Under the pieces are notes generated by a model. That model was not told the origin of the DNA and made no database searches. It saw only the letters and a program-made list of their open reading frames with translations. A stretch of 43,760 nt of DNA from Pseudohongiellaceae bacterium. Its GTDB lineage: Bacteria > Pseudomonadota > Gammaproteobacteria > Pseudomonadales > Pseudohongiellaceae. The translations under genes and the position numbers were made by a program. The DNA lies in the NCBI GenBank assembly GCA_040905005.1, contig JBBDSI010000008.1, positions 21,360-65,119 of the forward strand, given 5' to 3'. Shown here piece by piece: positions 1,423 through 42,045 of this stretch (within the stretch, counting starts at the first letter, position 1; each line of letters begins with the position of its first letter).

Positions 1423-2388
1423 TTACCATCTACCATCGGTACGGGTTATCGCCGCAAGAGTCTCAGACAGCTGAAAATCGAGCATCTCCGCCGGCGGGGA
1501 AGCCAGCACTGCTGAATCGGCAACCGTTAAATTATTCTGTTGCATCAGATCGCACAGTGTCTTTCGATATATTTTCCCGTCGAGCGCCGCATACGCTGAG
1601 AGATGTGTAGCGAGACTACAGCCGTCGAGGGGCTCGTTCAGCAAGCGCATTTCCATCCGTGCGCTTCTGAAATCCCGATAGTGGCGACTGGTGTTCAGAT
1701 TCAACATGTAGGACAGGGCAGAGCGCAACAGGGATGAAAAACTCTGTACGCCGTAATCCCCCAATGACGTATCACGCTGCATTGGCTCCATGCCGTCCCC
1801 CCAGGTCCATTCACCGTACAGGGCATTGCCCTGCGCCGCGAATCTTGACGTGCCCCAGCCGCTTTCCAGGATAGCCTGGGAAATAGCGAGCGCTGGCGGA
1901 ATGATGTCAACCCGCTTCAATACTTTCAGGGGAGCGGTGTCCGCGGGAAGCTCGTAGCTGGCTACAATCATCCTGTAGCGCTCGGAGCTGTGTAAGTCCG
2001 CGCCATGACCCGAAGCGAGGGCGTCCAGTATATAGGTCCGGTCTGCATTGATCTGTTCATTGGCTATCAGAATCAGCGGCGCCACCAGCCTGATGAAGAT
2101 GCTTTTCCTGCTTGCCACGTCCAGACCCGTCTCCCAGTTATCGGGCAGGTCATTGGTTACGATACGGGGCACGATGAGGGTGGGGCCGTCGCTGGTCACG
2201 GGCCACTCGAAGTGGAGACCGTGAAGGTAAGCCAGCACTTCTTCGGTCGAATGCACTTTGATGCTGCCTGGCACAAGCGCTTCGATCAGCGGATCTGCTT
2301 GGCCAGGCTTGGTCAGTCCCGCGGCAGGCAATGTCATCGCCAGCAACAAGCCAGCAAGTAGTCGGGTATATGTGTGTCTTTGTTTCAC
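1423..2388 (-). CDS. bax: Bax-like exported N-acetylglucosaminidase-domain protein (FlgJ-type glucosaminidase fold)
   Basis: The 321-aa ORF has a GTG start with GAGGAT about 8 nt upstream. The N-terminus is a signal peptide (LLAGLLLAMTLPAAG). The core VDIIPPALAISQAILESGWGTSRFAAQGNALYGEW...SFSSLLRSALSYMLNLNT matches the conserved E. coli Bax / glucosaminidase block (VDIIP...AAAESGWGTS...LFG). Confidence 0.8.
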   Translation of the reverse strand: MKQRHTYTRLLAGLLLAMTLPAAGLTKPGQADPLIEALVPGSIKVHSTEEVLAYLHGLHFEWPVTSDGPTLIVPRIVTNDLPDNWETGLDVASRKSIFIRLVAPLILIANEQINADRTYILDALASGHGADLHSSERYRMIVASYELPADTAPLKVLKRVDIIPPALAISQAILESGWGTSRFAAQGNALYGEWTWGDGMEPMQRDTSLGDYGVQSFSSLLRSALSYMLNLNTSRHYRDFRSARMEMRLLNEPLDGCSLATHLSAYAALDGKIYRKTLCDLMQQNNLTVADSAVLASPPAEMLDFQLSETLAAITRTDGRW

Positions 2389-2747
2389 ACCGCTGATCCT
2401 CAGCCTGGGTTAACGTACCCATTTATGGTTTGAGCAGCTGAAACCTGCTGTAGGAGCAAGGCTTTGCCGTAGAGTTGTTATCCTGACGTATCAGAAATTC
2501 TTGGGATATCGGGTAAACCCCTTAAGGAGAGTTTGGAAACGCTCCATCGCGCTGCAGCATTTGCCGAGTCGTGGAAGCTATAAAAAAAGCGGATAATAGT
2601 CGGCAGTCAGCAGGGTGTTGCTTGCCGCAACCGACAGGATGCGGGCAGGCTATTGGAATAGCGCTATTTACTGACGCTCAGCGGCGGCGGTTGCAAATCC
2701 AGACGTGGGTTTGCATAGCTGTGGGCAGGGCAGCCGCCGAGGGTGAC

Positions 2748-3233
2748 ATGACGCTAATCTGGTCGATCTACATTGCCGCGGGACTGCTGATCGCCATCGG
2801 GCTTGCCGGTGTCGTCGTGCCGATCCTACCCGGCATTCCCATGATGTTCGCTGGCATGTGGTTGGTGGCCTGGGTCCAGGATTTTGTTCATATCGGCCCG
2901 GTGACGCTTTGGGTTCTGGCCATCCTCACCGTTCTCTCGGTTGTGGTGGATCTGCTTGCCAGCGTGTTCGGAGCGCAGCGCGTGGGTGCCAGCCGCGGTG
3001 GGCTGCTCGGCGCGGCGATCGGGACCGTCGTCGGCCTCTTCTTCGGGCTGCCAGGCATCCTGTTGGGACCCTTGGTCGGCGCGGTGGCTGGCGAACTACT
3101 CTATCGACCAGGCCTGAAAAGCGCCACGCGGGTGGGGCTCGCCACCTGGGCCGGCATCATCGTCGGTGCCGTGTTCAAGGTCGCCATCGCCTTCATCATG
3201 CTCGGCCTGTTCGCCTTCGCGCTGTTGTTCTGA
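2748..3233 (+). CDS. DUF456-family small inner-membrane protein
   Basis: I place the start at the ATG at 2748 (MTLIWSIYIAAGLLIAIGLAGVVVPILPGIPMMFAG). The upstream 59 codons of the listed ORF look non-coding. The protein has four hydrophobic helices and the Gly-rich GAQRVGASRGGLLGAAIGTVVGLFFGLPGILLGPLVGAVAGEL segment typical of DUF456. Confidence 0.7.
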   Translation: MTLIWSIYIAAGLLIAIGLAGVVVPILPGIPMMFAGMWLVAWVQDFVHIGPVTLWVLAILTVLSVVVDLLASVFGAQRVGASRGGLLGAAIGTVVGLFFGLPGILLGPLVGAVAGELLYRPGLKSATRVGLATWAGIIVGAVFKVAIAFIMLGLFAFALLF

Positions 3234-3382
3234 ATCGGTGTTCTGAATCACTGTTTTGTATCATTGCTGCAGCCGGAACCGGATCAGTGTCGCGCTCAGC
3301 TGCGCCGCAGGCTCACCACCTTTTCGCCGCCGATCTCCACCGTCAGCGCGGACAGTTCGGTGATCGGCAGCCGGCAGCGGGC

Positions 3383-13796: not shown

Positions 13797-13860
13797 TGCC
13801 AGTCGCGATTGGTTACCTGTCAGCCGGAGAGCGTTCGGGTCGAAACAGGATGTGTTGGGA

Positions 13861-14895
13861 ATGAAGAGAGAAGTGGCACCCGGCCAGGGTATGATCCAAT
13901 ACACGCAGACACTGGAGGTGGGCGACTTCGTTCCCTACTTCGTCATTGACAATGACGGGCACAAGCTGGACCTGCAGGCGAAGGCGGGCGAGCACCTGCT
14001 GCTGGTGGCCATGGCAGACCCCGACACGGAGGCATTGCAGACCGCGCTGGAGCGGGATGCACCCTATCGCCAGTATTTCATCAGCAAGTCGAATGCCGGG
14101 CTCAGCGCAGGCAATCTGTTTCATGACGAAGCGGTGCAGCGTCTGCTCTCGCCTCGAGGAGAGCGCTACGCAGCCTATTTGTTGAGTCCCAACCTGAAGA
14201 TCATCCATATCGCCGTCGCCGACAGCCTCGATGCACTGCTGGCCGCGGTGCCGGACAGGCAGCAGTTGCAACCGATTCCCAACTGGCTGCCGGTGACGGT
14301 TGTGCCGGACGTCGTCTCCGCCGACCTGGCGCAGCGGCTCATTGCCTGGTTCGACGCCAACCGCGGCAACGCTTTCAGCAACAGCGGCGGCTACAAGTCA
14401 CGCTCGCATCTGCATCCGCCGGCGGAGCTGGCCGCCGAGCTGGACGAGAAGCTATGCAAGTCATTGTTGCCGGAGATCAGCAAGGTCTACTACGCCGACA
14501 TCAGCCACCGCGAGACCTATAAGATCTGCTGCTACGACTCCAGCGAGGCCGGCACCTTCGGCAAGCACCGCGACACCATCGCGCCGCACCTGCATCGGCG
14601 TTACGCCATGACGCTGGTGCTGAATGACAACTTCCGTTCTGGCGGCGTGCGCTTCCCCGAGTATGCCGATGCCGTACTACCAGTGCCGAAATATTCGGCG
14701 CTCATCTTTCCCGGCTCGCTGTACCATCAGGTGACCAAAGTGCGTGGCGGCCGGCGTTACGTGCTGATCAGTTTCTTTTTCACCGAAGCCGAGGCACGGC
14801 ACAAGGCGGACAGCGAGCGCTATCGCTTCACCGTGCGGCGGGATCTGCGCGGCCTGCGCCTGCGTTCACTGATGCCCGGTCCCGGCGGTGACTGA
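13861..14895 (+). CDS. 2OG-Fe(II) oxygenase of the prolyl-4-hydroxylase type, with an N-terminal Cys-less redoxin-like region
   Basis: The ORF opens at a GTG at 13852. The first ATG is at 13861, with AGGA 10 nt upstream. The C-terminal half carries the facial triad and 2OG-binding residues: FGKHRD (HxD), LIFPGSLYHQV (distal His) and GGRRYVLISFF (Arg). The N-terminal LEVGDFVPYFVIDNDGHKLDLQAKAGEHLLLVAM resembles an AhpC/TSA strand-loop but has no Cys. Confidence 0.8.
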   Translation: MKREVAPGQGMIQYTQTLEVGDFVPYFVIDNDGHKLDLQAKAGEHLLLVAMADPDTEALQTALERDAPYRQYFISKSNAGLSAGNLFHDEAVQRLLSPRGERYAAYLLSPNLKIIHIAVADSLDALLAAVPDRQQLQPIPNWLPVTVVPDVVSADLAQRLIAWFDANRGNAFSNSGGYKSRSHLHPPAELAAELDEKLCKSLLPEISKVYYADISHRETYKICCYDSSEAGTFGKHRDTIAPHLHRRYAMTLVLNDNFRSGGVRFPEYADAVLPVPKYSALIFPGSLYHQVTKVRGGRRYVLISFFFTEAEARHKADSERYRFTVRRDLRGLRLRSLMPGPGGD

Positions 14896-15858
14896 GTCAG
14901 CCTGGCGCGCGTAGTAGGGGAAATACTGCGGCAACTGGGTGTGCAGTCCGATGAAGCGATAGTAATCGCCTATCCTGCGGTCCTTGCCCAGGCCGAAGCG
15001 GTCGCGGTTCTCGATGACGTCCTCTTGGTAGGCGGGGTCCACCTGTGCCAGGTCATCGAGTTGCAAATAGTATTTCACCTTGGTCCAGGTGCGGGCCCTC
15101 CACCCTGACGCACGACTGTTGTAGTCGCGGCGGACCTTGTCCGGCAGCCGATCCCTGGTGGTCAGGTACTCGGTGGCGATGGCGTGGCGCGTAGGTGTAA
15201 GGAAATCGAAACCGTGCGTCCAGAGTCTAGCGGAGTAGAAAAATTGCTCGGCCGAGTGCAGGCCGAAGTGGAGGTTGGGGTCCAGGGGTACGGACAGCCG
15301 CTGACGGCAGTCCATGAACAGCATGGCCGCCGTGATGCCGTAGGAGACGACCGGTAACTCCGGGATTCTCACCAGGGAGCCGTGCATCTTGATGTCGTCG
15401 GCGCCCACGTGACGAAAGCGGTTGATCTTGCCGATCAGGCCGAGCTTCTCCTCATCGTTCATGTTCTGGATGTTGATGGGATAGTGGGAGAGCACCGGCT
15501 TTTCCGCCAGTTCCTGGCAGCGCCTGAACTCCTCGATCAGGATCGTGTCCCAGTCCGGAAAGAAGCGGCTGTGGCAGTCGATCTGGAAGAAGAAGTCCTC
15601 GTCCTCGATCAGCGCCTCGCAGCGGGCGCGGGCGTAGATGGGGCCTCTGGCCTCGGTATAGGGCAGGCGATCGACCCGGACCTGGCGAAAGCGGGCGAGG
15701 GTGCTGAAGCGGTCACGCTCCGGATCGTCCTGCAGACAGACGCCGACGTGAATGCGCTCCGGGTGCCGGGCCTTGCTGTAGAGATCGTTGATGGTGTGCA
15801 GCAGATCGCGGTCCATGAAGCAGGCGATGGACACGAAGATGGCCGGGTGTTTGCTCAT
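14866..15858 (-). CDS. GT-A glycosyltransferase of the 'Glycosyltransferase (GlcNAc)' / Gnt1-like family
   Basis: The ATG at 15858 gives MSKHPAIFVSIACFMDRDLLHTINDLYSKARHPERIHVGVCLQDDPE, matching the IFV.IASYRD...G.C.Q start I recall for bacterial 'GlcNAc-transferase family' proteins. A DxH metal motif occurs in FFFQIDCHSRFF, as in ppGalNAc-T/Gnt1-type GT-A enzymes. There is no signal peptide or TM helix. Confidence 0.7.
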   Translation of the reverse strand: MSKHPAIFVSIACFMDRDLLHTINDLYSKARHPERIHVGVCLQDDPERDRFSTLARFRQVRVDRLPYTEARGPIYARARCEALIEDEDFFFQIDCHSRFFPDWDTILIEEFRRCQELAEKPVLSHYPINIQNMNDEEKLGLIGKINRFRHVGADDIKMHGSLVRIPELPVVSYGITAAMLFMDCRQRLSVPLDPNLHFGLHSAEQFFYSARLWTHGFDFLTPTRHAIATEYLTTRDRLPDKVRRDYNSRASGWRARTWTKVKYYLQLDDLAQVDPAYQEDVIENRDRFGLGKDRRIGDYYRFIGLHTQLPQYFPYYARQADSVTAGTGHQ

Positions 15859-15925
15859 GGGCCAAGTATGCAAGAAAGCCGGCGAAAACTCACATGCGGA
15901 TGCCGCAGCTCAGGCGGAAGCAGTT

Positions 15926-16897
15926 TCAGCGACCGCCGCGGCGCATGTCCACCGGCAGACTGACGATGAAGTGGGCGCCGCCGTCGGCTTCGTTTTCCGC
16001 GCGGATAGAGCCACGATGTTTCTTCACGATACCGTGACTGACGTAGAGCCCCAGTCCGGTACCCATGCCGATCTCCTTGGTGGTGAAGAAGGGGTCGAAG
16101 ATTTGCGGCAGGTCCTTCTCATCGATACCCGGCCCGGTGTCGATGAAGTGCACGTGAACCTGCTCGGCGTCGGCCTCGGTGCGGATGGTCAGCGTGCCGC
16201 CGCTGCCCATGGCATGGATGGCGTTGATCATGATGTTGAGGAATATCTGGTTGAGCTGGCTGTTACAGCCGTAGATCGCCGGTAGCTTGCCATAGGCCTT
16301 TTCGATGCGGCAGTTGTACTTCACTTCATTGGCCAGCAGTTTCAGCGTACTGTCGATGACCTCGTTGAGATCACACAGGCGACGATTTTCCGAATCGACG
16401 CGGGAGAAGTCCTTGAGATTGTTGATTATCTCCTGCACCCGTTCGGCGCCGGACAGGCTCTCGCGGATGGAATCCAGGCTGTCGCGAATCACGAAGGCCA
16501 GGTCGTGCTCGCGCGCCAGCGCGATCATGCCGTCCATCTCCGCCCGGTAATCCATGCCCTCGGGATCGGCATCCGCCTTGTCGGCCACGGACTTGAAGCG
16601 GTCGAAGAGCATGTTGACCAGGGACAGGTATTCCTCCAGTGTCTGCAGGTTGCTCTTGATGAAGCCGATCGGATTGTTGATCTCGTGCGCGATACCGGCG
16701 GCCAGCAGGCCGATGGAGGCGAGTTTTTCCTGCTGCACGAGCTGCGTCTGCTGCGTGTTTAGCGTCTGTGTGGCGTTGCTGAGCGATTCGGACGTCTCGA
16801 ACAGCTCTTTTGAGCGCAGTTCCAGCAGCGTCTCGGCTCGCTCGCGCGCCCGTCGCTGCTGCTCGTAGGCATCCTTGTAGTCGTGATCATCGTTCAT
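15926..16897 (-). CDS. Soluble sensor histidine kinase (coiled-coil + HisKA + HATPase_c, no TM or obvious sensor domain)
   Basis: It has the H-box LLAAGIAHEINNPIGFI, N-box FLNIMINAIHAM, G1 IDTGPGI and G2 GTGLGLYVS. I prefer the ATG at 16897 (MNDDHDYKDAYEQQRRARE). The listed start at 17065 would overlap the divergent regulator gene. Confidence 0.85.
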   Translation of the reverse strand: MNDDHDYKDAYEQQRRARERAETLLELRSKELFETSESLSNATQTLNTQQTQLVQQEKLASIGLLAAGIAHEINNPIGFIKSNLQTLEEYLSLVNMLFDRFKSVADKADADPEGMDYRAEMDGMIALAREHDLAFVIRDSLDSIRESLSGAERVQEIINNLKDFSRVDSENRRLCDLNEVIDSTLKLLANEVKYNCRIEKAYGKLPAIYGCNSQLNQIFLNIMINAIHAMGSGGTLTIRTEADAEQVHVHFIDTGPGIDEKDLPQIFDPFFTTKEIGMGTGLGLYVSHGIVKKHRGSIRAENEADGGAHFIVSLPVDMRRGGR

Positions 16898-17030
16898 AGT
16901 GTTGTCGATCGAGACGCCCCGGCGTGTGAATAATCGTCCGCCCGGCTTTCGCCCTGCGCGTGCGACGAATGGGATGGTAACATCCAGTCCTGAAGTAACC
17001 GTGACTATTTTAGCCGAATCGAAGACCTGA

Positions 17031-18455
<1,425 letters not shown>

Positions 18456-19249: not shown

Positions 19250-20269
19250 ATGCATTCTTTCCTCGCACAAGTCGTTCGCAATCCGGGTCAGGTTATCAAA
19301 CGATACCTGACCCGACTGCTGTGCTGCGCGTGTATTCTGCTGCTTCCCCTGAGTCTCGGCCTGTCCCAGGCGCAGGCGCGGCCCCGGAGTTTTTTGACGA
19401 TCGATAACATCGGTGATGTGAATTTTGGCACCTGGGTTAACGCCGGCCTGTTCTCCAGTGCTACCGACTTCTGCATCGAATCCTGGAGTCGTGGCAGCGC
19501 GGTGGATTATAAGATCCGCGTAATCAGCTTCGAAAATCCAGGCAGCCTGTATCTGTACAGGAGCGGTGATGCCTCGGCCACTGGCAATCAGCGCATCGCC
19601 GTCGACTTCATTCATAGCGACCTCATTGGCAGCGGCGGTCAGGAAACTCTGCTGGCGAGCCAGTATGACCAGATCGACAACGAGGGACAGCGAAACAACT
19701 GCGATACCGGCGGCAACAACGCACGGCTGCGTATCGAGCTGTCCGCACAGGCGCTGAATGCGGCCGCCGCCGGCAATTACAGCGGATCATTCTCCCTGGA
19801 GGCCGACAACGGCTCGACTGACAGCGTAACCTTCGATGTTTCCGTGGAAGTCCAGGGGAGCCCCGAAGTACGCATCTCCGATCTCGACGACCTCGATTTC
19901 GGCCTCTACGGCGCTGGTCGCACCGGTAACCTGCAAGCCAGTGAACGCTTCTGCGTTTACAGCAGTGAGAGCAGCTACCGCCTCTCCGTCAGTTCGTCCA
20001 ATCAGGACGGCGGCGGCAATTTCTATCTCACCAGCGGCGGCACCGACGATGCGATCCCCATGGACGTGCTCTTTGCCGACCGTGGTACCGGCGCCGGCAC
20101 CGAGCCGGTGGGCAACCAGTCTCTTAGTGGCGTCGGCAACAACACCGCCGACGACTGTGGCGGCGGCAACAATGCCACCCTGACCTTTACCGTTCAGGAG
20201 TCTGACCTGCGTGCCTCGTCATCCGGCGTCTACAGCGACTCGGTGGTGCTTCTGGTGCAGCCGGAGTAG
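19250..20269 (+). CDS. Secreted two-domain (tandem-duplicated) subunit of the same family; candidate tip or adaptor protein
   Basis: The ORF is 339 aa with a signal peptide (LLCCACILLLPLSLGLSQAQA). Both halves repeat the pattern of the upstream gene: D(V/L)(N/D)FG, FC(I/V), then (N/D)C(D/G)(T/G)GGNNA(R/T)L. The ending YSDSVVLLVQPE parallels YSDTLILLVNPI. Confidence 0.65.
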   Translation: MHSFLAQVVRNPGQVIKRYLTRLLCCACILLLPLSLGLSQAQARPRSFLTIDNIGDVNFGTWVNAGLFSSATDFCIESWSRGSAVDYKIRVISFENPGSLYLYRSGDASATGNQRIAVDFIHSDLIGSGGQETLLASQYDQIDNEGQRNNCDTGGNNARLRIELSAQALNAAAAGNYSGSFSLEADNGSTDSVTFDVSVEVQGSPEVRISDLDDLDFGLYGAGRTGNLQASERFCVYSSESSYRLSVSSSNQDGGGNFYLTSGGTDDAIPMDVLFADRGTGAGTEPVGNQSLSGVGNNTADDCGGGNNATLTFTVQESDLRASSSGVYSDSVVLLVQPE

Positions 20270-20341
20270 CTCTTGAAGCACAGGTGTTGGTCGGAAAACT
20301 GTTGTTACTCATCAAACCGGAATAACCGGAGGTATAGAACG

Positions 20342-21052
20342 ATGTTAAAGAAATGGCTTTTACTGTTAACGATGTCTCTGCTCAGCGGCCACAGCGTCGC
20401 TGAGCTGGTCGTCAACCGCTCCATCGTCATCTACGACGACCCCGCCTCGGTGAAAGAGGATGTCGTGGTGATCAACAGCGATAGCGAGCGCAACCTCTAT
20501 GTGCAGGTGGATGCCTACCGGGTCATGGCGCCCGGCAGCGTCAATGAGGAGTTGCTGAAGATCGTGCCCGACGTCGCCCCGGAATTCCTGGTATCACCGA
20601 ACAAGCTCGTGGTGCCCCCGTCGGCGCGCAACCTGGTGCGCTTCCTGGACCTCGCCGGCGACCGAGCATCCGAGCGCGTCTATCGCGTCAACCTGATCCC
20701 GGTCACGCCCCCGGTCGAGCTTGAGGACACCGGTGAGGGTCGCATCGCCTCGCGCCTGGAAGTGGTCGTCGCCTATCAGGTGCTCGCCATCGTGCTGCCG
20801 CATGACCCGCAACCGGAACTGAGTTTTTCCGGCGAGGGCGGCCTGGCGCGCTTTGGCAACACCGGCAACGCGAACTACCTGCTCACCGACGGCCAGCAGT
20901 GCAACCCTGCCGACCCCGCCGACTGCCGCAAGCTTCAGAACCGGCGCGTCTACCCGGGCAACGAGTGGACGCTGAGCCTGCCCTTCGACGGACCCTTCAC
21001 CTACAAGGTGAAGACGCACAACGGCCTGAGCTCGCGTCAGTTCGACCTGTAA
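20342..21052 (+). CDS. Periplasmic PapD-like pilus chaperone (divergent)
   Basis: The ATG at 20342 is preceded by GGAGG. The protein is 236 aa with signal peptide LLLLTMSLLSGHSVA. Its size suits two Ig-like domains. A conserved-position Arg lies near the mature N-terminus (ELVVNRSIVIYDD), and the F1-G1-like strands read NLYVQVDAY and LVVPPSARNLVRFL. Its position directly upstream of the usher-like gene also fits. Confidence 0.6.
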   Translation: MLKKWLLLLTMSLLSGHSVAELVVNRSIVIYDDPASVKEDVVVINSDSERNLYVQVDAYRVMAPGSVNEELLKIVPDVAPEFLVSPNKLVVPPSARNLVRFLDLAGDRASERVYRVNLIPVTPPVELEDTGEGRIASRLEVVVAYQVLAIVLPHDPQPELSFSGEGGLARFGNTGNANYLLTDGQQCNPADPADCRKLQNRRVYPGNEWTLSLPFDGPFTYKVKTHNGLSSRQFDL

Positions 21053-21080
21053 GGCCGAAAGACGGACTGGATTGAAAGAC

Positions 21081-23471
21081 ATGCGCCTCGTTTCCCTGAC
21101 ATTCCTGATGCTACTGGCCGCATTGCCGGCCGGCGCCGCCGAGGACTGGGTTCCGCCGGGTTTCGAGACCCTGAACGAGCCCCAGACCACGGCCGTGGAT
21201 GTCTATTATGGCGGTTACTTCCTGACTTCGACGCTGGCGCGCTTCGATCACGACGAACTGAGCTTCATCGATCCGCAGGCGCTGATTCTGCGTCTGACCG
21301 ACCTGAAGGACCCGGACGAGGCTGCTGCACTGATGTCCCGACCGCTGGCGCTTAATGCCGATCAACTCTGCCATTCCGAGTTCCAGCTCGATTGCGGCAC
21401 GCTGCAGCCCGAGGACGTGAATATCATCTTCGATCGCGGCAACCTGCGCGCCTGGCTGTTCATCGCCCAGGATCTGCTCAGGACCCGCCAGGCGAAAGAG
21501 AACAAGTACCTGCCGCGCTCAAGTGCCGCGCTGTCGCTGTTCAGCGACAGCGCACTGTTCTTCAACCAGGCCGGCGAGCAGGACACGCATTACAACGTGG
21601 CCAATAACACCCAGATCGCGCTGGCGGAGAATCGCCTGCAGATCCGCAGCAACCTCACCGACGAGGAGGGCCTGATTGTCGATACACTGGCGCTGTCGCG
21701 GGAGTTTCAGGGCAGGCGCCTGGCCGCGGGCCTGTTCCGTGGTGACGTCAACAATGCCCGCTTCATGAGCAGCGAGCAGTTCGTCGGCGCCTCTTTTCGG
21801 ACTTCGCTGGAGACGCGCACTGACCTGTCTCAGTTCCAGGGCAACACCATCGAGCTGTTCCTGGAGACCCGCAGTCGCGTCGAGATCTATCAGGACGGGC
21901 GGCTGTACAGCACCGAGTACTATGATGTCGGTAATCAGGAGCTCGAGACCTCGACGCTGCCCCCCGGCTCCTATGAGATCGAGATCCGCATCACCGACGC
22001 CGCCGGCAACACCCGCAGCGAGCGTCGATTCTTTTCCAAGAATTCACACCTGCCGCCGGTGGACCAGGACCTGTTCTTCGTGCAGGCCGGCAGACTGGTG
22101 GATGAGCGCCACCGCAACAGCAACCTGGAGGCTGACGCCACCTTCCTGCGCGCCGGTTACAGCAAGCGCCTGACCGCCACCCTTGGCGCCGATGTCGGCC
22201 TGTCCCTGACCAGGGACAGCACCATGGTGGAGACGGGCCTGTTCCAGCAGGGACGCAACTACCAGTTCCAGGCCGGCCTGGCCTTTGAGAGTACCGGCGC
22301 CGCCGGCCTCACCTCCAACCTGCGCGTCACCGCCGAGCGCTTCACCATGAACTTCAGTGCCCGACGCGTGCTCAGCGGCGAGAGGGAGAAGCAGCTCGGC
22401 ACCGCCATCAACCAGCTGTCTTCCTCCGTGGAAATGCCGACCCGCTTCGGTCCGCTGAGCCTGTTCTATCGCCGCAACGCCCGCGGCGATGACTTCGAAG
22501 GGCAGAACATCGGGCTGCGCTGGCGCTCCAATTTTTACGACCTCGGCAGCGGCAATCTCAATGCCAGCTTCGAGGTATCGCACAACGACGAGGATCTGTT
22601 CGCCGCCCTGACCCTGAACTACCGCTTCGGTGGCGCCGGGGTGACCCACTCCATCGCGCCGCGACTGGTGCACGAGAGCGGCCCCAATGCCGCTGGCCGG
22701 AACGCGTTTCGCGGCACCATGGAGTCGCGCCTGGCCATGGCGCCCGGTCGCTACCTCTCTCTGCGCGCCGATCGCAACACCCGCAGCGCCCTCGAGGCGC
22801 GCATGGAACTGGAAGGCCGCCGTGGCAGCGCCGACGTGGCCGCGCGCTACAACCTGGAAACCAGCGACCAGGAATTCTTCGGGCGCCTGAGCGGTCGCTT
22901 CGCCGCCACCGGTTCCTCCGCCGCGTTCGGCGGCGCCCGCTCCGGCGAGAGCGCATTGCTCGTCGCCGTAGAGGGCGTGTCCCCCGAGCGTCGCTTCGAG
23001 GTGCTGGTCAACGGCTCGCCGCGCGGCGAGGTCAATGCCGGGGGCACGCTGCTGCTGCCGGTGGCGCCCTACGAGACCTACGATATCAGCCTCAAGCCGC
23101 TGGGCGACGCCATCGTCGACCTCGACAGCCGCAGCTATCGCAGGACCGTCTATCCGGGCAACGTCATCGACGTGAGCTGGGAGGCGCGCGAGGTGGTCAT
23201 CGCCTACGGACGCCTGTTCGATGCCGTTGGCGAGCCCATCAGCGACGCGCTACTGACCAACGTCATCGGCCTGGCCACCACTGACGCCGGCGGTTTCTTC
23301 CAGGCCGAGATAGATCGCAATACCAGGACCCTGGAAGTGAAGAAGGGCGCCAAGACCTGCCGGGTGAGGCTACAGGGCGAGCCGGACGCGCGCCAGCTCA
23401 TGCCTCTGGGCGATCTCACCTGCGACAATATCTTCGGCGACGAGCGTGACACCCTGTTTGTCGGCGGCTGA
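21081..23471 (+). CDS. Outer-membrane usher-like assembly protein (TcfC/CS1-type rather than classical FimD/PapC-type)
   Basis: The ATG at 21081 gives signal peptide MRLVSLTFLMLLAALPAGAA; the listed start at 21072 is TTG. The protein is about 796 aa and beta-rich. The C-terminal module EVLVNGSPRGEVNAGGTLLLPVAPYETYDISL...GLATTDAGGFFQAEI resembles the TcfC E-set-like plug or C-terminal domains. The family assignment comes from memory of motif style only. Confidence 0.6.
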   Translation: MRLVSLTFLMLLAALPAGAAEDWVPPGFETLNEPQTTAVDVYYGGYFLTSTLARFDHDELSFIDPQALILRLTDLKDPDEAAALMSRPLALNADQLCHSEFQLDCGTLQPEDVNIIFDRGNLRAWLFIAQDLLRTRQAKENKYLPRSSAALSLFSDSALFFNQAGEQDTHYNVANNTQIALAENRLQIRSNLTDEEGLIVDTLALSREFQGRRLAAGLFRGDVNNARFMSSEQFVGASFRTSLETRTDLSQFQGNTIELFLETRSRVEIYQDGRLYSTEYYDVGNQELETSTLPPGSYEIEIRITDAAGNTRSERRFFSKNSHLPPVDQDLFFVQAGRLVDERHRNSNLEADATFLRAGYSKRLTATLGADVGLSLTRDSTMVETGLFQQGRNYQFQAGLAFESTGAAGLTSNLRVTAERFTMNFSARRVLSGEREKQLGTAINQLSSSVEMPTRFGPLSLFYRRNARGDDFEGQNIGLRWRSNFYDLGSGNLNASFEVSHNDEDLFAALTLNYRFGGAGVTHSIAPRLVHESGPNAAGRNAFRGTMESRLAMAPGRYLSLRADRNTRSALEARMELEGRRGSADVAARYNLETSDQEFFGRLSGRFAATGSSAAFGGARSGESALLVAVEGVSPERRFEVLVNGSPRGEVNAGGTLLLPVAPYETYDISLKPLGDAIVDLDSRSYRRTVYPGNVIDVSWEAREVVIAYGRLFDAVGEPISDALLTNVIGLATTDAGGFFQAEIDRNTRTLEVKKGAKTCRVRLQGEPDARQLMPLGDLTCDNIFGDERDTLFVGG

Positions 23472-34922: not shown

Positions 34923-35270
34923 AGGGGATTGATGTCTTATTGAGGAGATAAAGCAGTCGATTTCTGCGGAATTTGGCTGAAAAACGAACTTCACCAGGTT
35001 CACCATTCACCAAACTGGACAATTTCCCGGCTCGGATATACCCTTCGTGCTACTCAAAGGCGTGCAACTGGATTCTCTACTATCAGCTACGGCCCATTGG
35101 TCAGTCTATTAGAGCATTAACATTACCGGGATACCCGTAAGTGTAGGGAATTTCAGATCAGGTTTTTAGTGTGTATCAAGTAGCACTGATTTCGGTCTGT
35201 ACGCTCAGCCAGTTCCAGGTCGAACATGGCCGCAGGATGTGGACTTCATTGAAGTAGCTGAACAGGGTTA

Positions 35271-36254
35271 ATGAAAGAGCATTTTGAGTGGCTGGTAGAC
35301 CGTAATATCAGGGATGAGACTGGCGACAGCACCCGAATTGATATTAAGCAGGAAGGTCTCGAGTTGAAGCTGGAACGGCTGTCATATGGTCCGTCAGCCG
35401 TCGTTTTTTGCAAGGTCCAGACCAGGGACCCCTTTCCAATGACCCTTGCCGATTCTGCAACAGAAGAATCGGATCAGGCACTGACGTACATCGTCAATTT
35501 ATCCGGGTATTCGACCGGTAAATTGCTCAACGGTAGTAAATTTGTCCTGGATAAGACCTGGGGCATCCTGGCTGATTTTTCCGATGGCAGTGCCGAATTC
35601 GTCTCCCACCCAGGTGAAACAATAAGATCGTTCAGCGGGGCTTTTGCCATTAATACCCTGAGCGATTTATTGGGGGAAGATTATGAGGGAGCAGGCGCCG
35701 CAATACTGCGCGAAATGTCCGACAACCCGGGCGCCCTGATTAGCTCTTTTCGCATATCCCCGCAAATACGACTACTTGCCAGTAGCGCTTGGGACAATAC
35801 TCAACTGGCTGGTCCGCTAAGGCGGTTGTTCATGGAAGGTGTTTCCTTGCAGATATTGGCCCTTATCCTTGATCAGCGGCAATCGGTCCCGTTGCTTGGC
35901 CGTCCTGCTGAGATTAAGGTAATAGCCCACAAGAACGCTATTCGAGATGCTGCCGAACTGTTGTTGAGCGATTTGGGCAATCCTCCTACCATCGCCCAGC
36001 TGTCAGCAATGTCCGGTCTCAGTGCACGACAATTAAACGCTGGTTTTAGGCAAATCTTCGGATATTCTGTCTTCAATTTTCTGTGTGAGAATCGGCTGCT
36101 TTCTGCTAAAGAATTATTGATAAGACAACCAGATTTCCCACTAAAAGTGCTCGCATCCAAAATGGGCTATGCCCATCCCAACAATTTCATTGCGGCATTC
36201 AAGCGTAAATATGGAATACCTCCCAGGCAGTACGCAAAGTTGCATCGCCACTAG
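35271..36254 (+). CDS. AraC/XylS-family transcriptional regulator
   Basis: The ORF is 327 aa. The C-terminal double HTH reads PTIAQLSAMSGLSARQLNAGFRQIFGYS...LASKMGYAHPNNFIAAFKRKYGIPPRQY. The N-terminal about 200 aa are unrecognised. The gene lies in a low-GC context, 470 bp upstream of the giant gene. Confidence 0.85.
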   Translation: MKEHFEWLVDRNIRDETGDSTRIDIKQEGLELKLERLSYGPSAVVFCKVQTRDPFPMTLADSATEESDQALTYIVNLSGYSTGKLLNGSKFVLDKTWGILADFSDGSAEFVSHPGETIRSFSGAFAINTLSDLLGEDYEGAGAAILREMSDNPGALISSFRISPQIRLLASSAWDNTQLAGPLRRLFMEGVSLQILALILDQRQSVPLLGRPAEIKVIAHKNAIRDAAELLLSDLGNPPTIAQLSAMSGLSARQLNAGFRQIFGYSVFNFLCENRLLSAKELLIRQPDFPLKVLASKMGYAHPNNFIAAFKRKYGIPPRQYAKLHRH

Positions 36255-36726
36255 AAGCGCTTTTCTACCCTGTCACAATTTACGCCTCGCAAGAAAATGC
36301 CAACCATCATAGTTTTGTCAATACGCATAGTTTTTATCTGTCGACCGAATTTGCCCACCCACTATAATCCCTTCCTGCTTGATGAATATTTGCGGCCAAC
36401 GGGGACGCTCACAATATAATATAGTCATATGATTGCGAGCCAGTCGAAGCTGGCCAGCTCATCAGTATTGCCTCGCTCATTAAGCCTGTAACACGGTTTC
36501 TCTGCCAGATTGCGCCTATTGACGTGCGGTTCATGCCCTACGTTTGCTTACTTAATGGCTGGCCGTCGGTGCCGCCCTAAAACCTGCTTTATCGGTAGAT
36601 TATCAATAGCAAAGCTGGCGCTAAAAATAACTGGTTCGATCTGGACTCTACTGCCCAATTATTGCAGTAACTTTCATTAACCTGACCCATTTCCGGGACA
36701 ATTATTTCCAGCAGGATTCTATTAAT

Positions 36727-39700
36727 ATGGCCAATAACAAGAAAAAAGATAACCAGGGTTCGAGCAGTCAGGTTGAGCCCTTGACAAAGATAAAAGGCAC
36801 TAATGCTGACGACATCCTGTCGGGTGGTGACGGCGACGAAAAAATTGAAGGCGGCAAGGGCAACGATAACATTTTCGGCGGTGCCGGAAACGATGAGATA
36901 AAAGGTGGTAGCGGCAACGACATAGTCAATGGAGGCAGCGGCAATGATGATGTCGATGGTGGTCAGGGTGATGACCTGGCGATCTTTAACGTCGCGGAGA
37001 ACACAGCGAGCGACAATACATACGACGGTGGCGCGGGCATAGATACGCTCCTGCTGGAAATGACGCGGGAAGAATGGATGCGCGATGATATTCAGCAGGA
37101 TATCGCCAACGTCCTCCAGTTCATTTCAGAAAAGAGCAATCCTTCCGGGCAAGCCAACGCCAATACCTTTAATTTCCAGGCTTTCGATCTGGAAATTCGC
37201 CGCTTCGAGAGCCTCAGGGTCACTGTAGACGGTGTTGAGCTTGACCCCGTTGATGAGCCCGTCACTGCGAACGACAGTAGCAGTTCTACCTCTGGGGAGC
37301 ATGATCCGGTTTCCGGCAATGTTTTAGACAATGATGATGTCCCCGATCTGGTGCGCTCGGTGGCTCTTATTACTCCGCCAACAAAAGGTGAGCTCACTTT
37401 TAATGATGACGGCGGCTTTACCTATGAGCCAGGCGATGAATTCGACTATCTGGCCGAAGGGGAGAAAGAAAGGGTTTCCTTTACTTACCGGGTAGTCGAT
37501 GCCGATCATGACGAGGACACCGCAACCGTTAGCATCGATATTACTGGTACCAATGACGCGCCCATCGCGAATCCGGATGCTGGCACTTCGCAGGAAAACA
37601 GCGCCATATCAGTAGATGTGCTGGCCAACGATACCGACGTGGATACCAGTGACACGCACACTGTGATCCAGGCTGCCATCGCCAGCGGCGCCGGTACGGT
37701 TGCCATTGTAGACAACAGGCTTGAGTGGACCCCGGGAACTGATTACGACTATCTGGCTCTGGGCGAGGAGGCGACCGTTGTCATTGATTACAGCGTCAGT
37801 GATAACCATGGAGGTATCGATTCCTCAACGCTTACTCTGACAATCACTGGCTCAAATGATGGGCCGGTTGCCAATGTGGATAGCGGTAATACCGAAGAAA
37901 ATACGGTCCTTTCGGTAGATGTATTGGCCAACGATACCGACGTGGATACCAGCGACACCCACACGGTCGATAAAGCCACGATTGCCAGCGGACTGGGCGC
38001 AGTGGCAATTGTCGACAATCAGATTGAATGGTCTCCGCGTAGCGACTACGACTACCTGGCAGTGGGTGAGTCAGCGCAAGTCGTGATCGACTATACCATG
38101 AGTGACAATCACTCATCAGAAGCTTCTTCAATCCTCACCATTACCGTAACTGGCAGTAACGATGCGCCGATCGCTGTCGCTGATACCGCCAGTCTTGGCG
38201 AGAACGCGGCTGTCACTATTGATGCGCTGGCCAACGATACTGATGTGGATGCCAGCGATACCCATACGATTACCTCAGCAAGCATTGCTAGCGGGCTCGG
38301 TGCGGTCAGTGTGCAGAACAATACCCTGGTGTGGAGTCCGGCGGAAATGACCGCGCCTGGGGCCGGGGGGGCGTCGAGCCTTGACGGGCTGGAAATTTCG
38401 CCTTCTGTATACGACTACCTGCCCGAAGGCGAATCAGCAACCGTATTGGTGGATTACGCGATAAGCGACGGCAACGGTGGTGTGTCAGCCTCCACGGCAA
38501 CAATTACTGTCAATGGTGAAAACGATGCGCCCACTGTCGTAGCCGTAGAAATGCAGAGTGTCAGTGAGCAGGATGAGGTATTCGATGTAGACCTGTTGGC
38601 AAGTGCCAACGATGTCGATAGCACAGCTGTCCTCACTGCGATAAATGTGAGTGAGAAAGAAGGTAAAGGTGGATGGACGGTCAATGGCAATACGCTCACT
38701 ATTGATCCCGACTACTACGACAGTCTGAACAATGGTGAATCAGAGACACTCTCAATTAACTATCAGATTAGCGACGAGTTTGGCGCCACAGTGGATCAAA
38801 CTCTCGATTACACCATCGAGGGATTTACCGATGCGCCGGATCTGGATGTCGAGCTGGCTGACAGTCAAACCCTGATTAATGGCATCAATATTGTCATCAA
38901 CGTGAAGCCCGCGGCCGAGGAAGAAGTCAACCTCAGTTTTGCCAATGTTCCTGCTGGCGCCACGATCATGTATCAGGGCAAGGATGTTGCAGCGTCCGGC
39001 ATCATCAATGCACTTCCAACACTGCAGGTCTTGTTGGTGCTTGCTCCTGATGCCGACGCCGACACAGACCTGCAGATAATTGCCACTGGCGTGGATGATC
39101 AAGGCCTCCAGGTCGGTGATACGGCCGTTGAACCACTGGATGTTAAATATTCGGCAAGCACGAAAACGGATTCGCTCTCATTCACTGCTGTAGATCAGGG
39201 TATGTGGAGTGCCGGCGCTGCCCCCCAGATCGGCTGGCATGAATACATTCCCTTCGTCGGAACAGAGACAGAAGCCTGGACCAGCGGCAAATTCAACCTT
39301 GTTGATATCAGTCTTAATTCAGACAGCATCGCGGCTGACCTGTTAAGTTTCTTTCAGGATGCACTGGATCTGGCGACGGGCGAGCAACAGGTGGCTCAGG
39401 GCAACCGGGACCAGACCGTAGCAGACAGAGACACGGCTTACAAAAAGGCCGTACATGTAGATGCTGTAGTTGCCGCCAAGAATGACTATAACCTGAAGGA
39501 TGGCATCTATCAGACCGCCCATATTGCCTGGAGGGCCGCACAGGATCTCGCCGACGGTGCCAGTGACAACTCCGATGCCGATGCGGCAACTCTTGCTGAA
39601 GCGCAGGATCATCTGGCGACATTGCAGTCACAGCGCTCTGCCCTGGAGGTTGACGCCAGAATTTCCTGGAGTGTTTGGGTGCCCACACCCGTGTGGGATG

Positions 39701-42024
39701 ATCCCTTTAAGGGCTACTGGCAGACATTCCACGGCCACGATCCAATCAAGTATGCTCTGGTTCTCGCCAAGGATGTTGAAATTGCAGCGCAAAAAACCGC
39801 TATCTATTTTATTGAGCTTGAAGCTTCTGGAACTGAAGCGGTCGAGGGTGCCTTACAGGACGCCGCCGATCTTCTGCTGCCAGCCAGGAATGAGGCGCTG
39901 GCAAACAGGACTGCCGCCGCTAATCATTTAGATGCTCTGGAAGCCGATATGCACGATGACGGTTTTTATGTTGGCACGAACGTAGATTCCTTCACGGTTG
40001 CTGCCGCCTGGACGGAAGTTGCTGCAAAGACAACGGCTATAGGAGTTACTGAGGGGATATTGGCTACTGCAAAAGCCGCTACAGCTTTGGCTCAGGCTGC
40101 GGTAGATGCCGCTCAGGGTGTGATTGACACAACTGACTTTAATGCCGATTTCTCCTTCGACTTAGAACTTCATGCAAAAGTCGGGCTGCAGATAGACTTC
40201 GCGCTGGATACGGGCTCGGTAGATGCATCAGCTTCCTACGACCTCCAAACCCAGACCCAGCACAACCTGACTACCGATACTCTGCTTATCACGCCAATGC
40301 TGGTTAACCTGGTAACCGGCGACAGTGTCGCCTTCAGCACAGTCAGCCCGAATGTACAATTCTATGCCGGCATTCTCTACGATGTGGGCGCCGACATAGA
40401 CATGTTTGTCGATGCCGCCTTCGCTGTCGGTGGCACTTCTCTATTTGATATTTCCGGTGATGATGATGGTATTCGTATACAGGAAAGCTTCGGTATGGAC
40501 GGTGTCATTACCCTGATTGATTTTGACTCCAGCGATGTCGGGCCGGTCAAGATGCCGTTTATCGAAAGTATGACCGAGGGTATTGTCAGCGTTTCCACGA
40601 ATATTCCCAACATCGCGACCCAGGGCACCGCCGCGCCTTTCAGCACCAGCTACTTCCAGGAGGGCGATCTGCTCAATGTTGATTTCTCTGAAATCAGTAG
40701 CGCCTTCTTTAACTTTATCGAAGCCGGCATTGATTTTAGCCCGGAGATAAAAGCCGCTTTTAGCAGCCTGGGAGACATCGACCCCGGTAGCACCGGCTTC
40801 GATGCCGTTATGGGAGCGGTCGGTGATGTATTGGCCGGAATCTGGGATGTTCTAAATGGCACGGCAGACACTGATGGTGATGGGGTGGTTCCGATCTTCC
40901 TGTTGGATGCCACCGACGAAACGTCAGCCTCGTTACTGCACCTGAATCTGGTACCCGACGACCTGTCCGGTATCGACGTTGATTCTGGCAGTCTGGGCTT
41001 TTATGTGTCTTATGGTGAAAGCGCTCCTGTGGTCCAAGTGTCGATTGACATCGACCAGTTCGTGGCGCTGGTAGCAAACCTTGCAGTGGGCAATACCTCG
41101 GGGGAAATCATTAACCCACTGGTCAAGGAATACGGTCTTGATGCGATCATGAACCTCGCTGATGTTCCTGTCGCTACGGCCGATGAAATCAAGAAATATG
41201 TGAATGCCAGCTACACATTTGAGTATGCGGATGTCGATGCGTCGACCGGATGGAGTTTCAAGCAGGAATTCACCCTGTCGATAGACGATATGTTGTACAC
41301 GCTTGAACTTGAAGACGGGACTTCATTCCTGTTTGCTGCCAATGACTCAAATCCCACGCTGGAAATCGACGATATCAGTCAGTACGACGCCAACGGTGAC
41401 GGCAACGTGAATTATTCCCTGAACCTGGTCCCTGAAGCCATGTTCTCCAACGACACTGAGTTGGGCATGAGTATTGGCTACACTCTGGATTTTCTGAAAG
41501 CGAATCTGGCCGCCGGCCTGAAAATACCGCTGGCCGATATTTTTGGAGTCCAGGGCGCTCCGGCCATTCCGATCCCGCTTTTGAATCTAAAGCTTGGGCC
41601 GCTTCTGCGAGTGAAAGGAGATCTTGATGTTCTCGATGTTGATGTCTTCGAGAATCGTTTTGCCTTCGATCTGGGTAATGCAACCACTAATGGTGGTATT
41701 TCGGTGATCGACGATGTTATCAATGGCACCCTTGACGATGACATCCTTGTTGGTAACGAAGGTAATGACATTTTCAACGGCGCTGGCGGTAACGACCTTT
41801 TCATCTTCGCAGCAAACCATGGTAGTGATGTGATCAATGACTTCAACGCCGGTGATGTCATCGATCTGGCAGCGGTCGGCATCTTCAACTCACCCACTGA
41901 GGCTCAACTGGCGGCGATCGATGACGTCAACGGTCATGCCAATATCGATCTGGGCGGTGGCAATGACATTACCCTGGTTGGTGTTGCCGCCGCCAGTCTC
42001 GCACCGGAAAGCTTTGTAGTTTAG
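36727..42024 (+). CDS. 1765-aa RTX-type, cadherin/VCBS-repeat putative adhesin (type I secretion substrate)
   Basis: There is no signal peptide. N-terminal GGxGxD nonapeptides span aa 30-85 (GGDGDEKIEGGKGNDNIFGGAGNDEIKGGSGNDIVNGGSGNDDVDGGQGDD). Five modules of about 100 aa span aa ~176-700 (TGxNDAP.A..D....EN....VDVLANDTDVD.SDTHT......ASG.G.V......L.W.P...YDYL..GE.A.V.IDY..SD). A long non-repetitive region follows. The C-terminus has RTX repeats plus a secretion-signal-like tail (GTLDDDILVGNEGNDIFNGAGGNDLFIF...DVINDFNAGDVIDL). Confidence 0.9.
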   Translation: MANNKKKDNQGSSSQVEPLTKIKGTNADDILSGGDGDEKIEGGKGNDNIFGGAGNDEIKGGSGNDIVNGGSGNDDVDGGQGDDLAIFNVAENTASDNTYDGGAGIDTLLLEMTREEWMRDDIQQDIANVLQFISEKSNPSGQANANTFNFQAFDLEIRRFESLRVTVDGVELDPVDEPVTANDSSSSTSGEHDPVSGNVLDNDDVPDLVRSVALITPPTKGELTFNDDGGFTYEPGDEFDYLAEGEKERVSFTYRVVDADHDEDTATVSIDITGTNDAPIANPDAGTSQENSAISVDVLANDTDVDTSDTHTVIQAAIASGAGTVAIVDNRLEWTPGTDYDYLALGEEATVVIDYSVSDNHGGIDSSTLTLTITGSNDGPVANVDSGNTEENTVLSVDVLANDTDVDTSDTHTVDKATIASGLGAVAIVDNQIEWSPRSDYDYLAVGESAQVVIDYTMSDNHSSEASSILTITVTGSNDAPIAVADTASLGENAAVTIDALANDTDVDASDTHTITSASIASGLGAVSVQNNTLVWSPAEMTAPGAGGASSLDGLEISPSVYDYLPEGESATVLVDYAISDGNGGVSASTATITVNGENDAPTVVAVEMQSVSEQDEVFDVDLLASANDVDSTAVLTAINVSEKEGKGGWTVNGNTLTIDPDYYDSLNNGESETLSINYQISDEFGATVDQTLDYTIEGFTDAPDLDVELADSQTLINGINIVINVKPAAEEEVNLSFANVPAGATIMYQGKDVAASGIINALPTLQVLLVLAPDADADTDLQIIATGVDDQGLQVGDTAVEPLDVKYSASTKTDSLSFTAVDQGMWSAGAAPQIGWHEYIPFVGTETEAWTSGKFNLVDISLNSDSIAADLLSFFQDALDLATGEQQVAQGNRDQTVADRDTAYKKAVHVDAVVAAKNDYNLKDGIYQTAHIAWRAAQDLADGASDNSDADAATLAEAQDHLATLQSQRSALEVDARISWSVWVPTPVWDDPFKGYWQTFHGHDPIKYALVLAKDVEIAAQKTAIYFIELEASGTEAVEGALQDAADLLLPARNEALANRTAAANHLDALEADMHDDGFYVGTNVDSFTVAAAWTEVAAKTTAIGVTEGILATAKAATALAQAAVDAAQGVIDTTDFNADFSFDLELHAKVGLQIDFALDTGSVDASASYDLQTQTQHNLTTDTLLITPMLVNLVTGDSVAFSTVSPNVQFYAGILYDVGADIDMFVDAAFAVGGTSLFDISGDDDGIRIQESFGMDGVITLIDFDSSDVGPVKMPFIESMTEGIVSVSTNIPNIATQGTAAPFSTSYFQEGDLLNVDFSEISSAFFNFIEAGIDFSPEIKAAFSSLGDIDPGSTGFDAVMGAVGDVLAGIWDVLNGTADTDGDGVVPIFLLDATDETSASLLHLNLVPDDLSGIDVDSGSLGFYVSYGESAPVVQVSIDIDQFVALVANLAVGNTSGEIINPLVKEYGLDAIMNLADVPVATADEIKKYVNASYTFEYADVDASTGWSFKQEFTLSIDDMLYTLELEDGTSFLFAANDSNPTLEIDDISQYDANGDGNVNYSLNLVPEAMFSNDTELGMSIGYTLDFLKANLAAGLKIPLADIFGVQGAPAIPIPLLNLKLGPLLRVKGDLDVLDVDVFENRFAFDLGNATTNGGISVIDDVINGTLDDDILVGNEGNDIFNGAGGNDLFIFAANHGSDVINDFNAGDVIDLAAVGIFNSPTEAQLAAIDDVNGHANIDLGGGNDITLVGVAAASLAPESFVV
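37537..38826 (+). repeat. In-frame tandem coding repeats with a 303-nt period (cadherin/VCBS-like modules 2-5 of the giant gene)
   Basis: The block tggccaacgata(c/t)(c/t)ga(c/t)gtggat(a/g)ccag recurs at 37622, 37925 and 38228, an exact 303-nt spacing. Module 4 carries an insertion (AEMTAPGAGGASSLDGLEISPS) and module 5 is more divergent. Confidence 0.9.
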
Positions 42025-42045
42025 GCCGTTATGATCTTGACTTTG

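Follow-up and report, generated by a model that had tools for sequence, protein, structure and literature searches.

What do an oxygenase and a glycosyltransferase accomplish together at a single bacterial locus, and on what substrate? The question is raised by two convergent genes in contig JBBDSI010000008.1 (assembly GCA_040905005.1, positions 21,360 to 65,119 of the forward strand) of a Pseudohongiellaceae bacterium, a member of the Gammaproteobacteria. This stretch of 43,760 nucleotides (nt), referred to here as the window, encodes a 2-oxoglutarate (2OG)/Fe(II)-dependent oxygenase of a family designated A1 and, on the opposite strand, a glycosyltransferase (GT) of the GT60 family. A sequence-only reading of the locus had proposed that the pair forms a hydroxyproline (Hyp)-O-GlcNAc pathway similar to the one that modifies Skp1 in Dictyostelium and Toxoplasma. 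As detailed below, functional coupling of the oxygenase with GT60 can be regarded as nearly certain. The more specific proposal, hydroxylation of a protein followed, in that order, by its glycosylation, is evenly balanced between being right and being wrong: the protein nature of the substrate, the order of the steps, and which sugar and which residue are involved are what we infer.

The convergent gene pair and its distribution

In the open reading frame (ORF) listing of the window, the oxygenase ORF spans positions 13852..14895 of the + strand and comprises 347 amino acids (aa) from a GTG codon. Alignment of homologues, 55 of which were found, places its start at ATG 13861, with an AGGA Shine-Dalgarno sequence 9 nt upstream, resulting in a gene of 13861..14895 and a product of 344 aa; the first oxygenase homologues start with MK-x-E, in line with this choice. 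The transferase ORF (14866..15873, - strand) comprises 335 aa from a TTG codon and is shortened by homologue alignment to a gene of 14866..15858 that codes for 330 aa from ATG 15858. In the raw sequence, the oxygenase stop codon is TGA at 14893-14895 of the + strand and that of the transferase, which reads TCA on the + strand and TGA on the - strand, is at 14866-14868, for a 30-nt overlap of the convergent 3' ends (14866..14895). The ORFs, the ATG starts, both stops, and the overlap are just as the sequence-only reading had them. No terminator-like hairpin was detected in the window sequence between the stops or just past them. The tail-to-tail abutment is kept in the relatives, with an overlap of 4, 13, 16, or 30 nt or with short gaps. 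The locus L174, whose GT is 94% identical, has an identical 30-nt overlap and a different upstream neighbor, and a TonB receptor adjoins its pair. Antisense interaction of the two convergent mRNAs, which had also been suggested, can at most be surmised from there being no space for terminators. Signal peptides are absent from both proteins, and the maximal 19-residue Kyte-Doolittle means (1.64 for the oxygenase and 1.27 for the transferase) are below transmembrane grade, so that both proteins look cytoplasmic, consistent with the earlier observation that they lack export signals. The G+C content and GC3 of both genes are in line with those of the flanking genes.

The same arrangement is found in other bacteria. 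A GT-centered scan, with one genome per GTDB species, yielded 27 loci from Halieaceae, Luminiphilus, Pseudohongiella, and other gammaproteobacterial metagenome-assembled genomes (MAGs), with GTs that are 41 to 61% identical to the one in the window. An A1 gene lies convergently directly behind the GT gene in all 24 loci where the contig extends past it; the other 3 contigs end at the GT. A complete genome with the pair is the 4.3-Mb Pseudohongiella assembly OZ245763. When metagenome loci of the close clade were centered on the oxygenase, GT60 occupied the same position in 32 of the 33. In the exceptional locus, L190, GT60 is replaced by the gene for an ATP-grasp ligase of the TTL family (1859-2788), which is co-oriented with the A1 gene (817-1839) and located 20 nt downstream of it. 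A TTL domain of this type is fused to GT60 in the giant-virus loci L098, L099, and L101. All-against-all clustering of the flanking ORFs revealed the pair in at least four unrelated neighborhoods, and in L001, L003, and L004 it is embedded between wholly unrelated flanks. The pair proved syntenic in every related genome that could be evaluated, as the sequence-only reading required.

GT60 genes are also abundant in contigs of giant viruses, with 509 confirmed matches. In the 11 viral contigs that carry the nearest GT60s (35 to 47% identity; G+C content of 0.23 to 0.34), an A1 gene adjoins the GT gene in 10, convergently in 8 cases and divergently in 2. A rough neighbor-joining tree of GT60 domains, calculated without support values, unites all of these "split," oxygenase-linked GTs in a single clade in which the gammaproteobacterial GT60s are nested among the viral ones. 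This nesting suggests horizontal exchange between giant viruses and marine Gammaproteobacteria. The viruses usually encode a third enzyme, a collagen-type prolyl 4-hydroxylase (P4H), recognized by its similarity to the P4H from Bacillus anthracis (1e-27), the Chlamydomonas P4H (7e-25), and human C-P4H alpha-2 (1e-19). It is either the product of a separate gene, co-oriented with the GT gene and located just upstream of it (L094, L095, and L213), or is fused to the N terminus of A1 (L010, L096, and L099-L102). In L094, the three genes are at 618-1664 (A1), 1607-2308 (P4H), and 2321-3262 (GT60). Other domains found fused to viral GT60s are GT25, TTL-type ATP-grasp, GT32-like, and PF03407.

Still tighter linkage is seen in fusion proteins. 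GT60, AhpC-TSA, the double-stranded beta-helix (DSBH) domain of A1, and a C-terminal P4H-like DSBH domain (PF13640) are combined in single polypeptides in P0170 (966 aa), P0178 (996 aa, encoded on a 385-kb bacterial contig), P0195, and P0217, and L217 is a fusion of GT60 and A1. Such Rosetta-stone fusions show that the two enzymes belong to a common pathway. Other fusions combine A1 with an O-FucT-family glycosyltransferase (P0157, P0161, L203, and L205) or with a GDSL hydrolase (P0158). Fusions of GT60 with a P4H-type domain that lack A1 are seen in L066, as well as in P0334 and P0343, where PF13640 and PF13661 occur with PF11397, so hydroxylases are recurrent partners of GT60. Given the frequent presence of an extra, genuine P4H in the viral and fused versions, A1 itself need not be the prolyl hydroxylase.

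A chance neighborhood of two functionally unrelated genes would fit the facts that convergent genes are not cotranscribed and that the flanks differ between genomes. However, pairing in 24 of 24 and 32 of 33 loci, in four or more contexts, and in giant viruses, together with the single-polypeptide fusions, effectively refutes this explanation, which retains only a minute probability. The functional link between the two enzyme types proposed by the sequence-only reading is therefore upheld.

Several GT60 and A1 variants deserve separate mention. Many cassette GT60s from Halieaceae carry an N-terminal FkbM-type methyltransferase domain, PF05050 (L009, 1861-3564; L019, L020, L022, L030, L079, and P0077-P0113), which points to O-methylation of either the target or the sugar that is transferred. 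In L035 (MAG UBA7449) and L200 (MDSV01077508.1), the GT60 and A1 genes are both fragmented, reflecting either joint pseudogenization of the cassette or assembly errors. A distant GT60 clade (L037-L090), found in Burkholderiales, Magnetococcales, Rickettsiales, Magnetospirillum, and one Methanosarcinales MAG, is characterized by a C-terminal fusion to a class I S-adenosylmethionine (SAM) methyltransferase, as in L071 (5788-7542), L063 (5815-7554), and L044 (5917-7557). The genes of this clade are orphans in nonglycan surroundings, such as LysR, SNF2 helicase, and hydrogenase genes. The P0125 contig (ERZ4119665; 32.5 kb) and L010 represent a virus-like contig with a G+C content of 0.24, in which five further PF13640 oxygenase genes surround GT60, an unusual density of protein-hydroxylase paralogues. 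This GT60 shows a faint GT31-like (PF01762) match and is convergent with a P4H-A1 fusion.

Domain composition of the two enzymes

The sequence-only reading had likened the transferase to the "Glycosyltransferase (GlcNAc)" family and noted a DxH motif, and the assignment holds. The protein matches PF11397, the GT60 "GlcNAc" family, with 161.4 bits (cutoff, 21; E value, 5.5e-47), the best stretch running from position 94 to 349 of the 352-position profile with another stretch matching as well, and PF11397 is present in all 101 transferase homologues found. The motif reads Q92-I-D94-C-H96, with the D94 codon at 15577-79 and the H96 codon at 15571-73 (both verified), and Q-I-D-x-H is invariant across 31 diverse aligned relatives. 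At the N terminus, there is a conserved GT-A beta-1 strand, IFVSIA. An AlphaFold (AF2) model built with the homologue alignment has a predicted local distance difference test (pLDDT) score of 93.9. When this model was compared with the PDB by Foldseek, the top 47 matches were all GT27 polypeptide GalNAc-transferases, with E values down to 1e-12. Judging from its sequence and model, the transferase is a clear member of PF11397/GT60 with a predicted GT-A fold and the DxH motif. The fold matches are in accord with the literature, in which GT60 is a family of GT27-related polypeptide alpha-GlcNAc-transferases that includes the Hyp-specific cytoplasmic Gnt1, as well as Ser/Thr-specific Golgi (mucin-type) enzymes (PMC8724618). 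Family membership alone therefore does not fix the acceptor. No GT60 structure was among the results of the PDB sequence search with the transferase, and the GT60 profile search, in which Gnt1 was sought, returned no named eukaryotic sequence. Database names of the homologues are limited to "GlcNAc-transferase family protein," "2OG-Fe(II) oxygenase," and "YbiX/peroxiredoxin," the last of these from JGI.

The oxygenase had been described as having an intact HxD...H...R site of the P4H type. The site is indeed intact. Counting residues from GTG 13852, the predicted Fe ligands are H239 (14566-68), D241 (14572-74), and H292 (14725-27) and the predicted 2OG-binding residue is R302 (14755-57); all four codons were verified, and H239-R-D241, H292, and R302 are invariant in 32 aligned homologues. 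The attribution to P4Hs, however, could not be maintained. The window oxygenase has no Pfam match at an E value of ≤0.01, so that of the two families only that of the transferase was confirmed by profile hidden Markov models (HMMs), and in a Pfam scan none of 32 close homologues matched PF13640 at an E value of ≤1. Distant members of the family with 36 to 40% identity (L203, L205, L218, L231, and L237) do pass PF13640, with 34 to 42 bits against a cutoff of 27, which makes the window protein a member of PF13640 by transitive homology. The NCBIfam models of the PiuC/YbiX family (PRK05467) give it 21.8 bits (cutoff, 143) and 15.5 bits (cutoff, 180); by these scores, it is not a member of this PKHD equivalog family. 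Direct assignment through Pfam, NCBIfam, and PDB sequences thus yielded subthreshold matches only. The profile of the family, when run against all PDB sequences, retrieved only human lysyl hydroxylase LH3 (2.4e-5), PiuC (1.7e-4), the lysyl hydroxylase L230 of mimivirus (7e-3), and the Shewanella PKHD protein 3dkq, and no P4H or PHD at an E value of ≤1.

Structure prediction provides a broader placement. The AF2 model of the oxygenase shows two domains (pLDDT, 88.9). The catalytic DSBH domain (residues ~147-320; positions 14290..14811, + strand), delimited by the invariant residues, Foldseek, and the profile, has a pLDDT of ~90. In a Foldseek search with the C-terminal ~190 residues, PHD2 ranked first, and the matches also included PKHD, the B. 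anthracis P4H, PPHD, vCPH, L230, and LH3, all with E values of ~1e-8 and template modeling (TM) scores, normalized by target, of 0.55 to 0.67; PHD2, P4H, and lysyl hydroxylase (LH) were found at a probability of 1.00. A fold search of BFVD turned up no match with two domains, its results being confined to single-domain viral 2OG oxygenases of a generic kind. The modeled fold puts the oxygenase among protein hydroxylases without separating specificity for Pro from that for Lys. Both the profile and Foldseek group it with protein rather than small-molecule hydroxylases, as the sequence-only reading implied.

The N-terminal domain (residues ~20-135; positions 13909..14256, + strand) is AhpC/TSA-like, as indicated by the AF2 model, in which ~120 residues form a thioredoxin-like beta-alpha sandwich with a pLDDT of >90, and by Pfam matches of the relatives. 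The domain in the window protein has no Pfam match of its own; the homologous region of P0170, P0174, P0178, P0217, and L218 matches PF00578 with E values from 1e-7 to 3e-10. Residues G24, D25, P28, D40, N114, and K116 are invariant in the alignment. The peroxidatic Cys at the PxxxTxxC position is absent in the window protein, P0178, and P0170, so the domain is degenerate and presumably noncatalytic; its role is probably that of a scaffold or of a module for binding the substrate, not that of a peroxidase. Taken together, sequence and model show that the oxygenase is not a classical prolyl 4-hydroxylase, and it is treated here as representing a distinct family, A1, in which an AhpC-like domain is joined to a divergent DSBH of the PF13640 type. 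Among 1.84 billion cluster representatives, all of which were searched with an HMM, 2304 were assigned to this family at an E value of ≤1e-3 and 304 at ≤1e-30.

A predicted two-step modification and its alternatives

In the preferred scheme, A1 would use O2, 2OG, and Fe(II), the latter held by H239, D241, and H292 with R302 binding 2OG, to hydroxylate a Pro or Lys side chain of the target. GT60, a cytoplasmic, presumably Mn2+-dependent enzyme with the DxH motif, would then transfer GlcNAc or a related HexNAc from the UDP-sugar to the newly formed hydroxyl. A protein substrate is proposed because both halves of the cassette resemble protein-modifying enzymes, as do the alternative partners of A1, namely, O-FucT, TTL, and the extra GTs. 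That the cassette is self-contained and horizontally mobile, and acts as a two-step modification unit for a protein encoded elsewhere, is put forward with moderate confidence.

Several observations weigh against hydroxylation followed by glycosylation of a protein. There is a large distant clade of bacterial GT60s with no oxygenase nearby, and clustering of the flanking ORFs revealed no third gene, such as one for a substrate, conserved across the context groups, save for a generic alpha/beta hydrolase. In the viral and fused systems, the acceptor for GT60 could be the product of P4H rather than that of A1. Small-molecule oxygenases, such as AndA, have Foldseek E values only ~10-fold worse than those of protein hydroxylases, and for PiuC, one of the closest relatives in sequence, we know of no established substrate. 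Finally, GT60 includes Ser/Thr-specific enzymes, so that A1 and GT60 could each modify a different site of the same target; such parallel modification is a live option.

The pathway originally envisioned, in which the oxygenase is a prolyl 4-hydroxylase and GT60 caps 4-hydroxyproline with alpha-GlcNAc, possibly for O2 sensing, is a narrower sub-case of the two-step scheme and becomes one option among several. It can draw on the 161-bit match of the transferase to PF11397, a family built around Gnt1, on PHD2 being the top Foldseek match of the oxygenase, on GT60s that are fused to, or lie next to, genuine P4H domains (L066, L094, L095, and P0178), and on the cytoplasmic character of both proteins. 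Nevertheless, it appears rather unlikely. The profile of the oxygenase, which does not belong to the P4H type, recognizes LH3, PiuC, and L230 and, at an E value of ≤1, not a single P4H or PHD; A1 coexists with, or is fused to, a separate collagen-type P4H, which argues for different specificities of the two; and Skp1 is, to our knowledge, absent from bacteria. A collagen-like logic, with A1 as a lysyl (or other nonprolyl) hydroxylase and GT60 glycosylating hydroxylysine, comparable to LH3, GLT25D1, and L230, deserves equal consideration. LH3 and L230, the best matches, have in common with A1 the motif DYEGGG...PG.L.H...G.RY..SF. The 2OG-binding residue is Arg in A1, as it is in LH and PHD, and Lys at the equivalent position of the viral P4H, as in collagen-type P4Hs. 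In addition, viral GT60s are fused to GT25, the family of collagen Gal-transferases, and P4H occurring together with A1 resembles the P4H-LH pair of collagen. Even so, this version is quite doubtful, as the similarity to LH is limited to ~60 residues of the DSBH core, where PiuC scores nearly as well, PHD2 comes first by fold, GT25 also includes lipopolysaccharide (LPS) beta-Gal transferases that extend GlcNAc, and no collagen-like Gly-X-Y ORF was found near any locus. Among the ORFs near the viral cassettes, a search for Gly-X-Y repeats or Pro-rich tracts produced only two weak Pro-rich candidates and no Gly-X-Y repeats. These ORFs, L094 4676-5575 (-) and L093 5484-6713 (-), lie within 1.5 kb of the cassette and carry Pro-rich tracts with TIPTVPQV...-type repeats (PSSPVPSPIPPPPTPGP); neither has a Pfam match, and both are possible substrates.

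Alternatively, the two enzymes might hydroxylate and then glycosylate a nonprotein substrate, be it a small molecule, a lipid, a glycan, or a nucleic acid base, as in the formation of base J or the tailoring of siderophores. The PiuC/YbiX-type relatives of A1 are connected with iron uptake and are not known to have any protein substrate that has been proven, the TonB receptor adjoins the pair in L174, and no substrate gene is linked to the cassette. The partners of the types SAM methyltransferase, FkbM, GDSL, and "sugar-transfer associated" ATP-grasp are likewise encountered in pathways for natural products and glycans. This alternative is unlikely, given that the top 47 fold matches of the GT are solely polypeptide GalNAc-transferases and that all sequence matches of the oxygenase belong to the P4H/PKHD/LH group rather than to TET/JBP, AlkB, or TauD, while the surroundings of the pair show no conservation of a biosynthetic cluster or of transporter or polysaccharide genes. 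For hydroxylation and glycosylation of DNA bases of the JBP/TET kind, the fold was ground enough to judge this possibility unlikely.

If A1 does hydroxylate a protein for GT60, the consequences extend beyond a single locus. Hydroxylation-coupled glycosylation of proteins is known in eukaryotes (Skp1, collagen, and plant hydroxyproline-rich glycoproteins [HRGPs]) and for one mimivirus enzyme, L230, so that the chemistry as such has precedents, the new elements being the hydroxylase family and the host range. In the literature searched, a module of GT60 and an oxygenase is nowhere described for bacteria or viruses, and no bacterial counterpart of hydroxylation-coupled protein glycosylation came to light. 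It is tentatively suggested, at somewhat less than an even chance for the statement as a whole, that the cassette represents the first hydroxylation-dependent protein O-glycosylation system of prokaryotes and giant viruses, in which an AhpC-like/DSBH hydroxylase creates the acceptor for GT60 on a housekeeping or surface-destined protein; that it has passed between Nucleocytoviricota and marine Gammaproteobacteria; and that it may constitute an evolutionary pool for the eukaryotic Hyp-GlcNAc modification of Skp1 in O2 sensing and for collagen-type hydroxylation and glycosylation. Since the enzymes need O2, 2OG, and UDP-GlcNAc, the resulting mark would report on oxygen and nutrient status. Such a system would provide a bacterial and viral home for hydroxylation-coupled protein glycosylation, define an oxygenase family of ~2,300 representatives whose core clade lacks a Pfam model, and supply the first function for bacterial and viral GT60 proteins. 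As a compact two-gene system expressible in Escherichia coli, it would open the origin of O2-dependent protein glycosylation to experiment, and its apparent movement between giant viruses and marine Gammaproteobacteria is interesting in its own right.

Genomic surroundings and comparison with known systems

Upstream of the transferase, the window encodes a histidine kinase (15926-17065, - strand) and, divergently, a sigma-54-dependent response regulator (17031-18455, + strand), with a 35-nt overlap of the annotated 5' ends of the two; the kinase may in fact start further in. Downstream of the regulator, there is a CS1/TcfC-type chaperone-usher pilus cluster (19250-23471). As candidate partners of the pair, PilT/PilU, the histidine kinase, and the sigma-54 regulator were rejected because none of them is conserved in another locus. 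A low-G+C island at 35001-43374 (G+C content of 0.46 to 0.54, compared with ~0.62 elsewhere), which was probably acquired horizontally, contains an AraC-type regulator (35271-36254), a 1765-aa RTX/cadherin-like/Big_9 adhesin (36727-42024), and a Fic-domain gene (42136-43374, - strand).

Among the characterized systems, the Skp1 pathway of Dictyostelium and Toxoplasma (PhyA and Gnt1, followed by PgtA and others) similarly relies on a cytoplasmic 2OG/Fe(II) hydroxylase and a cytoplasmic GT60 (PF11397) enzyme, and the extra GT domains in relatives of the cassette (GT25, GT32-like, and PF03407) recall the extension of the glycan on Skp1. It differs in that the hydroxylase described here has the AhpC-like-DSBH architecture and is not a homologue of the PHD-type PhyA, and in that the genes are physically linked or fused. 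LH3/PLOD3 and L230, which provide the best profile matches to the catalytic core of A1, combine hydroxylase and glycosyltransferase in one polypeptide, as do the fused P0170 and P0178, and L230 also shares the connection to giant viruses. However, the GT partner of A1 is GT60 and not the GT domains of LH3 or L230, LH lacks the AhpC-like domain, and no collagen-like substrate is evident. PiuC/YbiX and the Shewanella protein 3dkq show profile and fold scores comparable to theirs, but PiuC is a single-domain protein of ~225 aa that is not paired with a GT. Lastly, A1 has its fold class in common with the bacterial and viral P4Hs, such as the B. anthracis P4H, the Pseudomonas PPHD that acts on EF-Tu, and PBCV-1 vCPH. 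The window oxygenase differs from them in having no sequence match to them at an E value of ≤1, and A1 co-occurs with genuine P4Hs rather than replacing them.

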